Notes under the pieces: generated by a model
Seen by the model: only the letters and a program-made list of their open reading frames with translations
Database searches by the model: none
Told to the model about the DNA's origin: nothing
Source of the DNA: Dictyostelium discoideum
Lineage: Eukaryota
NCBI GenBank assembly: GCA_000004695.1
Contig: CM000151.3
Coordinates: 1,472,001 to 1,536,000, forward strand
Reading direction: 5' to 3'
Length of the DNA: 64,000 bases
Position numbers and translations under genes: made by a program
In this document: positions 50,912 to 61,510 of the stretch, piece after piece
Layout: each line of letters opens with the position of its first letter
Numbering within the stretch: position 1 is the first letter of the stretch

Positions 50912-52243
50912 TTAAAATAATCTTGGATCATTTTTTCTTTCCCAAACAGGGTAACGATTACGATTACAATTATAAAACCATGGTAAAATAGCGACTTCTT
51001 TTTTAAAGAAATCATCCATTGTGCTAATATCTTGAATTTTATAAGCGTGGTCAGATTTTGTTTCTAATAAACGAAGTTCTAATTTTTGAATATTTCCATT
51101 TTGAATGTCATCTGAAAAATTTTTAACATGAGTTTCATTTTTGATACCACATTCAGTACATGATAAATATTTCACCATTTGGAATGGTAAATAACCATAA
51201 TGAGTCATATGCATTCCACCCAGCATATAGTGACCCGAAGTACCACGATTTCTAGATGGTGCTTTAGTTGTTGATTTTGCTCTTTTCAATGTATAAAAAG
51301 TCGGATCACCAAGTGTATATGGATTATTTGGTACTGAATAAAAAGGTTTAAAAACTTGATTAATTGGACCATACGGGAACCAAATACCAATATCAACAAT
51401 ATCAACACTTTTTCTAAATTGGCAATTCTTTAAATAATGTAAATTAATTCTTGCACTGATTTCATCGGTATCGCCAAACCCAATAATATCATCATCACCA
51501 TATTGGTTTGTTCTCTCATTCCAGTATAAAAACTTTTGCCAACGACGAGTTTCCTGATAACTTTCTGCATCGAATAAACCTTTACCATTCTCTTCATCAG
51601 TATCATCTAAAATTAAATGTACAACTTTATCTTGAAATTTAATGAAACGATCTTGAAATTTAACATGTTCCCAAATCAATGGTTTTTTCATTTTATGATA
51701 ATGTGTTACTGTTGATTCGAGAATAAAGAAATGGTCAATAACATCATATAATTCATTTAAATGAACTTCTAAAACATCAATATCGAAACCAATTTGTACC
51801 ATGTGTCCGATTTTAACAGGTTTATCACGTTTACCTGAGAATACTCTTGGATATTTCCCACAAACAGAATTATTAATAATTGGTAAAGGTTCAGGTTTAC
51901 ATGATTCATTAATTGGCACTAATGGCGGTTCAATTAAATAGTTTGATAATGTTAAAATCAACATTTGTGAATATTTATCTGTATTTTCAGTTTTACCAGT
52001 TCTTGCTGCTGCTTTAAAATCCTCCCATGGGAAATTATTCATGTCCTGTGTAAAATTCTTTCCTCTAAATTCATAATCTATATTATAATTTGATACTTGT
52101 TGTTTGTTATTTGATAAGTGATATATATTTTCTGTTTGGTAAACTTTTATAGATTGAGATAGATTTGGTAACAAATAAATCGTGTAGGTCGCCACAAAAA
52201 TTAGACCAATTAAAACAACAATCCTTGCAATTGTGTTGTTCAT
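50912..52243 (-). CDS. GT17-family glycosyltransferase (GnT-III / bisecting GlcNAc-transferase-like), type II membrane protein. Paralog 1 of 4, with a short stem and no PT repeats.
   Basis: The N-terminal signal anchor is MNNTIARIVVLIGLIFVATYTIYLL. The conserved catalytic region (..PVKIGHMVQIGFDIDVLEVHLNELYDVIDHFFILESTVTHYHKMKKPLIWEHVKF..VVHLILDDTDEENGK..DIIGFGDTDEISARINLHYLKNCQ..) parallels the mammalian MGAT3 core (INAINVNHEFDLLDVRFHELGDVVDAFVVCESNFTAYGEPRPLKF..DDVFIIDDADEIPAR). Confidence 0.7.
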   Translation of the reverse strand: MNNTIARIVVLIGLIFVATYTIYLLPNLSQSIKVYQTENIYHLSNNKQQVSNYNIDYEFRGKNFTQDMNNFPWEDFKAAARTGKTENTDKYSQMLILTLSNYLIEPPLVPINESCKPEPLPIINNSVCGKYPRVFSGKRDKPVKIGHMVQIGFDIDVLEVHLNELYDVIDHFFILESTVTHYHKMKKPLIWEHVKFQDRFIKFQDKVVHLILDDTDEENGKGLFDAESYQETRRWQKFLYWNERTNQYGDDDIIGFGDTDEISARINLHYLKNCQFRKSVDIVDIGIWFPYGPINQVFKPFYSVPNNPYTLGDPTFYTLKRAKSTTKAPSRNRGTSGHYMLGGMHMTHYGYLPFQMVKYLSCTECGIKNETHVKNFSDDIQNGNIQKLELRLLETKSDHAYKIQDISTMDDFFKKEVAILPWFYNCNRNRYPVWERKNDPRLF

Positions 52244-52937
52244 TATATTTTTTTTTTTTTTTTTTCTTTTTATTTTTATTTTTTTTTTTTTTTTTTCATA
52301 AAAAATAATTAAAATTTAAAAAAAATGCTATTTATATATATATATATAGATACCGAGATTTTTAAAAAACCAAAAATTTTACCACACTAAAACAATCGGA
52401 CTATTTCCAATTTTTTTTATTTATTTAATTTTTTAAATGATTAAAAAAAATTTTTTTTCCAATTTGCAAGAAAAACATTCACACTAAATTTCATAAAACA
52501 AAAAAACACTTTTTTTTTTTCTTTTTTTTTTTCTTTTTTTTTTTTATTTCTCCTTCAACTATTCACCAAAAAAAAAAAAAAAAACAAATTAAAAATCCAA
52601 AATATCTTGATGATGAGGGGGAATTTTTTTTTTTTTTTTCTTTTTTTTTTTTTATGAAATTCAAAAAAAAAAAAATAAATAAAAAATAAAAAATCGAACG
52701 AGTTCTTTGAAAACTGGTCCAAGTGTCTTTTGAAAGTGACTTTAAAATTCGAAAGGGTGGTTTTCACCAAGAGGCATTCAAAAATTATTGCTATTGTTTT
52801 TTTTTTTTTTTTTTCAAACCATTTCATACATCTTAAACGATTGTTGTTTTTTTTTTATCAAACCATTTCATACATCTTAAACGATTATTGTTTTTTTTTT
52901 ATTTTTTTTTATTTTTTATTTATTTATTTATTATATT

Positions 52938-60050: not shown

Positions 60051-60190
60051 AAACACTAACAAAAAAGGAAAAAAAACAAAAAAAATGGGTCAAATCCTTT
60101 TGTTAAACAATTTTTTTTTTTTTTTTTTTTTTTTTTTTTTTAAAAAAAAAAAAAGAGTTGTATTTTTATTTTATTAATTTTTATTAAATT

Positions 60191-61510
60191 TTAAAATAAT
60201 CTTGGATCATTTTTTCTTTCCCAAACAGGGTAACGATTACGATTACAATTATAAAACCATGGTAAAATTGCAACTTCTTTTTTAAAGAAATCATCCATAC
60301 TACTTAATTGACGAATTCTATGAGCATGATCAGATTTTGTTTCTAATAGACGAAGTTCTAATTTTTGAATATCACCTTTTCCAATATCATTTGAAAATAA
60401 GGTAATTTGATCCTCTCTTGTTATACCACATTCAGTACATGATAAATATTTCACCATTTGGAATGGTAAATAACCATAATGAGTCATATGCATTCCACCC
60501 AACATATAGTGACCTGAAGTACCACGATTTCTAGATGGTGCTTTAGTTGTTGATTTTGCTTTTTTTATTGTATAATAAGTTGGATCACCGAGTGTGTATG
60601 GATTACTTGGTACTGGGAAATCTGGATTGAAAACTTGATTAATTGGACCATATGGGAACCAAATACCAATATCAACCATATCAACACCTGATTTTAATTG
60701 ACAATTCTTTAATAAATGTAAATTAATTCTTGCACTGATTTCATCGGTATCGCCAAACCCGATAATATCCTCATCACTATATAGATTTGTTCTTTTATTC
60801 CAATCTAAAAACTTTTGCCAACGACGAGTTTCCTGATAACTTTCTGCATCGAATAAACCTTTACCATTCTCTTCATCAGTATCATCCAAAACTAAATGCA
60901 CCACTTTATCCTTGAATTTTAAAAATCTATCTTGAAATTTAACATGTTCCCAAATTAATGGTTTCAACATTTTATGATAATGTGTTACTGTTGACTCTAT
61001 TATAAAGAAATGGTCAACGACATCGTATAACTCATTTAAATGAATTTCTAAAACATCAACATCGAAACCAATTTGTACCATGTGTCCGATTTTAACAGGT
61101 TTATCACGTTTACCTGAAAACACTCTTGAATATTTTGATGTGCATACTGAATCGTCGATAGGTGGTAATGGTTCAGGTTGACATGATTCATCTATTGGTA
61201 CTAAAGGTGGTTCAATTAAGTAGGTTGATAATGTTAAAATCAACATTTGTGAATATTTATCTGTATTGTCTGTTTTACCAGTTCTTGCTGCTGCTTTAAA
61301 TTCTTCCCATGGGAAGTTATTCATATCATATGTAAAATTCTTTCCTTTTGCTTCATAATCTATATCTGCTATTGAAAATTTTGATTTAGGTCTATAATAA
61401 CTTATTCCACTACTATATACAATTTGATTTATGCTTGGAATAAAATATATCATTAAGGTTAATATACCTAAACCTATAAAAACTAATAACCAAATTCTAG
61501 TACGATTCAT
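60191..61510 (-). CDS. GT17-family glycosyltransferase paralog 4, with a short stem and no PT repeats.
   Basis: The N-terminal TM is MNRTRIWLLVFIGLGILTLMIYFI. The conserved core carries DVDVLEIHLNELYDVVDHFFIIESTVTHYHKMLKPLIWEHVKFQDRFLKF..GFGDTDEISARINLHLLKNCQ.. and the C-terminal CNRNRYPVWERKNDPRLF shared by all four paralogs. Confidence 0.7.
   Translation of the reverse strand: MNRTRIWLLVFIGLGILTLMIYFIPSINQIVYSSGISYYRPKSKFSIADIDYEAKGKNFTYDMNNFPWEEFKAAARTGKTDNTDKYSQMLILTLSTYLIEPPLVPIDESCQPEPLPPIDDSVCTSKYSRVFSGKRDKPVKIGHMVQIGFDVDVLEIHLNELYDVVDHFFIIESTVTHYHKMLKPLIWEHVKFQDRFLKFKDKVVHLVLDDTDEENGKGLFDAESYQETRRWQKFLDWNKRTNLYSDEDIIGFGDTDEISARINLHLLKNCQLKSGVDMVDIGIWFPYGPINQVFNPDFPVPSNPYTLGDPTYYTIKKAKSTTKAPSRNRGTSGHYMLGGMHMTHYGYLPFQMVKYLSCTECGITREDQITLFSNDIGKGDIQKLELRLLETKSDHAHRIRQLSSMDDFFKKEVAILPWFYNCNRNRYPVWERKNDPRLF

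Follow-up and report, generated by a model that had tools for sequence, protein, structure and literature searches.

The window analyzed here, a stretch of 64,000 nucleotides from chromosome 2 of Dictyostelium discoideum AX4 (assembly GCA_000004695.1, contig CM000151.3, positions 1,472,001 to 1,536,000), contains a tandem array of four genes of glycosyltransferase family 17 (GT17), here called copies A, B, C, and D, with a two-exon gene of the Sulfotransfer_2 family located between C and D (Table 1). The DNA has a G+C content of approximately 15–35% and carries poly-asparagine (poly-N) tracts. A preliminary description, made by a model from the sequence without database searches, had placed four GT17 genes on the minus strand, and the listing of open reading frames (ORFs) bears this out: all four are co-oriented on that strand, with one exon each. 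The entries corresponding to copies A (DDB_G0272170) and D (DDB_G0272276) are named only as hypothetical or uncharacterized protein.

All four products score above the threshold of Pfam family PF04724 (Glyco_transf_17), in agreement with the family assignment first proposed, at 52.6–55.7 bits (cut-off 26; E 5e-15 to 5e-14), copy A scoring 55.7 bits. The alignment covers profile positions 68–197 of 348 rather than the whole profile and ends just past the motif GDTDEISAR; the C-terminal ~170 residues, which are conserved inside the subfamily, lie outside it. A precomputed PF04724 match is present in 116 of the 120 listed homologs, in which the dictyostelids are represented only by the D. discoideum clade and Cavenderia. 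Full-length relatives at 40–50% identity have a patchy distribution, occurring in Rozella, chytrids, trichomonads, Nannochloropsis, sciarid flies (Bradysia and Pseudolycoriella), and, in several copies, the springtail Orchesella. A search of NCBIfam profiles found nothing, and no solved structure matched the GT17 proteins in sequence.

Each protein begins with a basic tail of five to seven residues followed by one hydrophobic anchor (Kyte-Doolittle 19-residue mean of 2.3–3.0), and the same scan found no second hydrophobic segment in any of the four, so that the predicted arrangement is the type II membrane topology of the preliminary description, of the kind seen in Golgi proteins. The GT17 hallmark motifs noted there are also present and conserved: residues D152, E155, F169, E172, K183, and D256 are invariant across 68 homologs, and D254, E257, and R261 are conserved in at least 90% of them. 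The AlphaFold model of copy A (predicted local distance difference test score 91.5) has a GT-A fold in which the D-T-D motif comes after predicted strand 249–254 of the core, the placement expected of a D-x-D motif in that fold. Between anchor and catalytic domain the stems vary, being proline- and threonine-rich (PT) repeats in B and C and short, without such repeats, in A. An ORF of 96 codons at 57175–57465 (minus strand) was rejected as a gene because it is an alternative reading frame of the copy C PT-repeat region.

Age of the Array and Probable Exchange among Its Copies

The order GNAT–A–B–C–sulfotransferase–D–Las1 recurs in D. citrinum, D. firmibasis, D. dimigraforme, and D. cf. discoideum, so the arrangement from A to D is common to five taxa when D. 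discoideum is included; the gene between C and D was confirmed as the sulfotransferase ortholog in the four aligned species, which do not include D. cf. discoideum. An independent D. discoideum assembly shows the same layout, with 99.4% identity over 13.8 kb. The AX4 copies are 10–13% apart in DNA, have different stems, and lie in unrelated flanks, their similarity starting 126–316 nt inside the coding sequence and ending 0–88 nt past the stop codon (B and C share the stem too). Assembly duplication, which the preliminary description had raised as a way in which it could be wrong, is rejected on this divergence, on the unrelated flanks, and on the independent assemblies; together with the constraint on the copies described next, these leave a collapsed or expanded repeat with a negligible probability.

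Over the catalytic region (~372 codons) the AX4 copies are 82.5–87.3% identical in protein and 87.0–89.9% in DNA, so that the earlier wording "near-identical" was an overstatement. The reported identity of the C-terminal tail holds: the last 35 residues are the same in all copies, with two variable nucleotides in 108, and this tail, like the other motifs quoted, is kept across the wider subfamily. Synonymous divergence (dS) among the copies is 0.26–0.36 and the ratio of nonsynonymous to synonymous divergence (dN/dS) is 0.25–0.33; all four are under purifying selection. The preliminary description read the likeness of the copies as recent tandem duplication and proposed synonymous divergence as a check. 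The evidence below points to homogenization, and a recent origin is not supported, given the array order common to five taxa and the N-terminal regions, which group by position.

In trees of the N-terminal transmembrane and stem regions, sequences group by array position, with bootstrap values of 97–100 for A, B, and D over all species. The catalytic region gives discordant signals. At third codon positions it forms species clades (bootstrap 93–100) and any positional clade has a value of 0, whereas first and second positions group by array position in three species. In the protein tree, copies cluster by position in D. discoideum, D. citrinum, and D. dimigraforme (bootstrap 94–96), and the D. 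firmibasis copies cluster together, all four having a K to R replacement in the otherwise identical tail. Mean dS between paralogs within a species (0.14–0.41) is lower than that between orthologs at the same position (0.47–0.60), and at the larger divergences the same-position value equals that for different positions. Fixation throughout the four copies of just one species is seen at 23 synonymous and four nonsynonymous sites; fixation by array position in the different species is seen at one synonymous and eight nonsynonymous sites.

Within AX4, all three quartet topologies find support (16, 20, and 32 sites), and the supporting sites lie in contiguous blocks. Runs of concordant sites exceed the permutation expectation in four of six AX4 pairs at p ≤ 0.003, and in the other two at 0.017 and 0.026, by a home-made test (not GENECONV or RDP) confined to the catalytic region; an earlier version that included the divergent N-terminus was possibly inflated by rate heterogeneity, and the catalytic-only rerun gave the same outcome. 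A sliding window places the switch at the motif FPWE: upstream, orthologs differ by 0.18 and paralogs by 0.41–0.51, whereas downstream, except in three islands, paralogs are closer than orthologs. In comparison with the close relative D. cf. discoideum, A and D retain part of the positional signal at third positions (about 80%) and B and C do not, which is the picture that a gradual, piecewise conversion should leave.

Clustering by species in third-position trees and in dS is also what independent birth-and-death duplications would leave, if each species had arrived at four copies without gene conversion. Such a history would require copy number, order, stem types, signal anchors, and the position of the sulfotransferase to recur five times, and would have to accommodate the positional N-terminal trees, copy-specific motifs common to the species (see below), and mosaic blocks in AX4 that simple duplication does not lead one to expect; we consider it extremely improbable. 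Hardly more credible is that codon usage or mutation bias, and not exchange, produced the clustering. Extreme AT richness makes synonymous sites nearly two-state and prone to homoplasy, but the four species hardly differ in base composition at third positions, so that grouping by species at these positions is not a codon-usage effect; moreover, the D. firmibasis copies all share four fixed nonsynonymous changes, among them the K to R of the tail, that are absent from the other species, and quartet support comes in blocks and is not scattered.

The likeness of the catalytic domains is best explained by concerted evolution of an old array through domain-limited gene conversion: the copies would be alike because they overwrite each other's catalytic-domain DNA, not because they duplicated recently. 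In the history that we propose, at least five Dictyostelium taxa inherited the four-copy array from a shared ancestor, together with a Sulfotransfer_2 gene lodged between C and D. In each product a short basic tail and a signal anchor would precede the stem, which varies between copies and is PT-rich in B and C, and the GT-A-fold catalytic domain would contain the D-T-D motif. Non-reciprocal recombination would repeatedly homogenize the DNA from FPWE to the stop codon, while the transmembrane and stem regions and the flanks evolve independently of that segment.

Amid these homogenized surroundings one loop, at A residues 296–300, is kept in every species as P-D-F-P-V in A and B, P-G-Y-P-V in C, and P-F/Y-Y-S-V in D. 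The motif G-I-T-x-E-x-Q-I-T in A, B, and C corresponds to G-I/V-K/R-N-E/I-T-H-V-K in D, with QIT versus HVK at residues 368–370; AX4 copy D has PFYSV and GIKNETHVK. Copy A has D across species in place of N at a conserved N-E-S/T sequon (D107 in AX4, where B, C, and D have N-E-S), and the position of A residue 200 differs between K and Q according to array position. Islands with copy-specific motifs persist even in the strongly homogenized D. firmibasis. The persistence of these motifs points to selection for functional differences between the copies; such selection would be what keeps a handful of loop residues distinct.

Concerted evolution in which selection keeps a few functional differences is a general phenomenon, primate opsin and globin arrays being examples. 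The GT17 array resembles these in that paralogs are more alike within species, tracts are mosaic, and few copy-specific residues are kept; it differs in that conversion stops at the boundary between stem and catalytic domain.

Table 1. Features of the GT17 array and the enclosed sulfotransferase gene (window coordinates)
Feature	Coordinates	Strand	Remarks and evidence
GT17 copy A (DDB_G0272170)	60191..61510	-	439 residues, single exon; 100% match to AX4 entry
GT17 copy B	57992..59455	-	487 residues; ORF, Pfam, motifs
GT17 copy C	56022..57485	-	487 residues from first ATG; ORF listing runs on to TTG at 57509
GT17 copy D (DDB_G0272276, UniProt Q559V6)	50912..52243	-	443 residues; exact-sequence match
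Homogenized segment, FPWE motif to stop	A 60191..61315; B 57992..59110; C 56022..57146; D 50912..52033	-	Sliding window, codon-position trees, homology limits
Candidate D-x-D metal/nucleotide-sugar motif (D254-T-D256)	A 60743..60751; B 58541..58549; C 56577..56585; D 51464..51472	-	Conservation and model
Position-specific loop	A 60611..60625 (PDFPV); B 58409..58423 (PDFPV); C 56448..56462 (PGYPV); D 51332..51346 (PFYSV)	-	Species alignment
(T-Q-T-P)n stem, copy B	59187..59309	-	12-nt repeat; tandem repeat scan
(T-E-T-P)n stem, copy C	57219..57359	-	12-nt repeat; tandem repeat scan
Sulfotransferase exon 1	53635..54896	-	ATG 54894..54896; open frame from 54871; 5'-phosphosulfate-binding motif (5'-PSB) PKVGGTS at 53696..53716
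Sulfotransferase intron	53549..53634	-	86 nt, GTAAGT...TAG, 6% G+C, frame kept
Sulfotransferase exon 2	52938..53548	-	3'-phosphate-binding motif (3'-PB) RDPVDRVIS at 53400..53426

The Sulfotransferase Gene and Its Neighbors

The spliced product of the gene between C and D matches Sulfotransfer_2 (PF03567) with 43 bits (cut-off 22; E 8e-11) over profile positions 12–250 of 252, which bears out the earlier identification of a two-exon sulfotransferase with 5'-PSB and 3'-PB motifs. Its orthologs have introns of 86–88 nt, as implied by gene range minus coding length. PKVGGTS and RDPVDRVIS align to the 3'-phosphoadenosine-5'-phosphosulfate (PAPS)-binding motifs of HS6ST3 and HS2ST, and K65, G68, R132, P134, R137, and S140 show little or no variation among 48 sulfotransferase homologs. 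With the heparan-sulfate 6-O- and 2-O-sulfotransferases (PDB 5t03 and 4ndz), the 5'-PSB (FLHxxKxGGT), the 3'-PB (TMLRDPVxRxxS), and a C-terminal helix segment align within an overall similarity that is weak (E 0.002–0.008). The poly-N stem of the preliminary description corresponds to an (AAT)69 tract in exon 1 (54404–54610). Directly 3' of the stop codon is a 44-nt direct repeat (2.3 copies, 96% match, 52803–52902).

Kil1, the only characterized Dictyostelium Golgi sulfotransferase, is like this gene a Golgi-type carbohydrate sulfotransferase of the same organism, but it is DDB_G0267630, at another locus, and identity with Kil1 is rejected. The closest AX4 paralogs are DDB_G0274677, DDB_G0274515, and DDB_G0270564. 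The homolog search listed no AX4 protein for the gene itself, but it also missed the called ortholog of the other strain (623 residues) and so has no bearing on the AX4 annotation. Judged by its motifs and profile match, the gene encodes a predicted PAPS-dependent carbohydrate sulfotransferase paralogous to, and distinct from, Kil1. Loss of Kil1 abolishes the mannose-6-sulfate epitope (PMC3534706), and the sulfotransferase of the array is therefore not needed for that epitope in the strains studied.

The 5' end of the gene is broken in the window. The start that had been given to it, at 54871, is a TTG; the frame of the actual ATG is interrupted by a TAA at codon 12 and shifted by +1 near codon 19, inside the signal-anchor region, and the gene thus lacks an intact start in this sequence. 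The residual ORF beginning at the TTG has a hydrophobic peak of 1.5, compared with 2.9 for the intact anchor. That anchor (M-x-R-I-Q/H-F-F-K-...) is present in the second D. discoideum strain, D. citrinum, D. firmibasis, and D. dimigraforme. The first ~55 nt (54840–54896, minus strand) differ at seven positions from those of that second strain, including a new GGATCC site in the window, and the remaining ~1.9 kb are identical; the broken start would be either damage that arose in the AX4 lineage or a mistake in the reference sequence.

The preliminary description went on to suggest a functionally linked glycosylation/sulfation module. We found no linkage of GT17 and sulfotransferase genes beyond background synteny: it is seen only in the five close taxa, in which the unrelated neighbors GNAT, Las1, Yae1, and CBS are equally syntenic, and linkage so confined does not count as evidence of a functional module. 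The nearest sulfotransferase homologs of D. purpureum and Cavenderia fasciculata adjoin an Arf/Ras-type GTPase gene with no GT17 gene nearby, and the Cavenderia GT17 gene examined has no sulfotransferase among its neighbors. The combined proposal of recent duplication and joint function can draw on the high catalytic similarity with its identical 35-residue tail, on adjacency kept in five taxa, and on sulfated intersected glycans in D. purpureum (PMC11795075). It is nevertheless improbable, in that the array and its order are older than the split of the five taxa, with positionally orthologous N-terminal regions and flanks; adjacency among close, generally syntenic relatives is matched by the unrelated genes and disappears in D. 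purpureum and Cavenderia; bisected and intersected glycans are described in AX4-derived strains despite the broken AX4 start; and mannose-6-sulfate epitopes depend on Kil1. We regard the sulfotransferase as a syntenic neighbor of the array, its functional coupling to GT17 being unsupported.

The array is flanked by a GNAT acetyltransferase gene (152 residues, 61902–62360, plus strand), syntenic in four other assemblies, and by the start of a large polyketide synthase, whose ketosynthase lies at 63421–63993 (plus strand) and which has ~3015 residues in the other strain. A multi-exon Las1-like gene (48760–50810, plus strand; Pfam Las1 E 2.6e-45 for the first exon), syntenic in other species, adjoins copy D. 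The spacer between A and B contains a 23-nt tandem repeat, TTTGGTGTTTCATAATTGTATTA (3.3 copies, 59974–60048). Elsewhere in the window, ARAGORN reports a sole tRNA gene, tRNA-Ile(AAU) at 20518–20590 (plus strand), and two ORFs of 271 residues each, at 3387–4202 and 7556–8371 (both minus strand), are mutually unrelated (BLASTP E = 2); the first has a DUF6748 match, and an ORF with a VASt domain (5294–7498, plus strand) lies between them.

Probable Function of the GT17 Proteins

Both the GT17 family of D. discoideum and the role proposed for it have been described before. Sucgang et al. (2011; PMC3188802) published a four-gene family with a proposed role in adding peripheral beta4-linked N-acetylglucosamine (GlcNAc) to N-glycans, and these genes have been candidates since 2011 or earlier, to judge by West et al. 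(2005) as cited there; the listing of GT17 in CAZy is given by PMC3188802 and PMC11795075. The genes of the window are the same family, two of the four (DDB_G0272170 and DDB_G0272276) matching exactly. Our search of the literature yielded no functional study of these genes, no use of their gene identifiers, and no mention of their tandem arrangement, the embedded sulfotransferase, concerted evolution, or copy-specific loops.

Intersecting GlcNAc on Dictyostelium N-glycans was described in 1987 (paper cited in PMC8724618), and bisecting GlcNAc occurs on them too. GT17 is absent from D. purpureum, whose N-glycans miss the fourth GlcNAc (Sucgang et al. 2011; PMC3188802), and D. purpureum and D. 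giganteum have intersecting GlcNAc without bisecting GlcNAc (Hykollari et al. 2025; PMC11795075). The presence of GT17 thus correlates with bisecting GlcNAc, and intersecting GlcNAc may be added by an enzyme of a different family. The preliminary description had linked the array to both modifications; this agrees with the published hypothesis (PMC3188802), but its intersecting half is weakened by a species that makes intersecting GlcNAc without GT17 (PMC11795075).

The only characterized GT17 activity is that of GnT-III, the product of MGAT3 and founding member of the family (EC 2.4.1.144; PMC7014118). The Dictyostelium proteins share with it the Pfam GT17 match, type II topology, a D-x-D motif, and the proposed GT-A fold, and the proline-rich juxtamembrane stem of MGAT3 is comparable to the PT stems of B and C (PMC7014118). 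They would differ in acceptor (complex or hybrid N-glycans for MGAT3, high-mannose ones here) and do differ in number (one gene versus four), in a comparison made through the part of the Pfam profile given above. From this homology and the correlation between glycome and genome, the most likely activity of copies A to D is that of inverting UDP-GlcNAc:mannose beta1,4-N-acetylglucosaminyltransferases with high-mannose N-glycans as acceptors, the bisecting position being the best-supported target.

Taking these lines together, we assign a probability of roughly 0.7 to the reading that the locus is the known D. discoideum GT17 family, an old tandem array with a sulfotransferase between C and D, whose catalytic domains are homogenized by gene conversion and whose products are probable N-glycan GlcNAc-transferases. 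Several points weigh against it. On the evolutionary side, dS is noisy in this AT-rich genome, single-copy neighbors giving 0.24–0.55; the trees are neighbor-joining trees on p-distances and not model-based; and the discordance of codon positions inside one segment would need selection in addition to conversion. On the functional side, Cavenderia fasciculata has three GT17 genes in our homolog search and is reported to carry at most three N-acetylhexosamine (HexNAc) residues per N-glycan (PMC11795075), which, together with the intersecting GlcNAc of D. purpureum, makes the correlation of gene and glycan imperfect. Because the Pfam match spans the donor-binding half only, acceptor specificity cannot be read from homology to MGAT3.

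This last point also favors a rival in which the proteins are GT17 members that use another acceptor or donor (O-glycans, glycosylphosphatidylinositol anchors, or spore-coat or slime-sheath polysaccharides) and do not make bisecting or intersecting GlcNAc. So do the full-length relatives at 40–50% identity, for bisecting GlcNAc is not known to us from Rozella, chytrids, trichomonads, Nannochloropsis, sciarid flies, or springtails. The glycans of Cavenderia and D. purpureum fit such a rival as well (PMC11795075), but D. purpureum has lost both GT17 and the fourth, bisecting GlcNAc (PMC3188802, PMC11795075), and the sole characterized activity of the family is GnT-III (PMC7014118); we hold this rival to be possible but unlikely.

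To the reading of A to D as N-glycan GlcNAc-transferases one may add, tentatively and with considerable doubt, that the copies are non-redundant, that the residues at 296–300, 368–370, and 107 set acceptor or site specificity and are defended by selection against conversion, and that the array makes both bisecting and intersecting GlcNAc and perhaps performs other transfers, the sulfotransferase acting on the products where it is intact.

What is added here to the published family is the domain-limited concerted evolution with preserved copy-specific loops and the broken start of the sulfotransferase in the reference strain, and its value lies in practical guidance and not in discovery. The AX4 reference sulfotransferase may be non-functional or mis-sequenced, which matters for sulfation genetics in AX4. 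The array cleanly illustrates gene conversion that is limited to one domain, here in a social amoeba. The genes for the bisecting and intersecting transferases are still unproven, and these four are the published candidates; given the age of the copies and their individual conservation, knocking them out one at a time may reveal different phenotypes, and the copy-specific loop residues form a short list that could be used for specificity-swap work.

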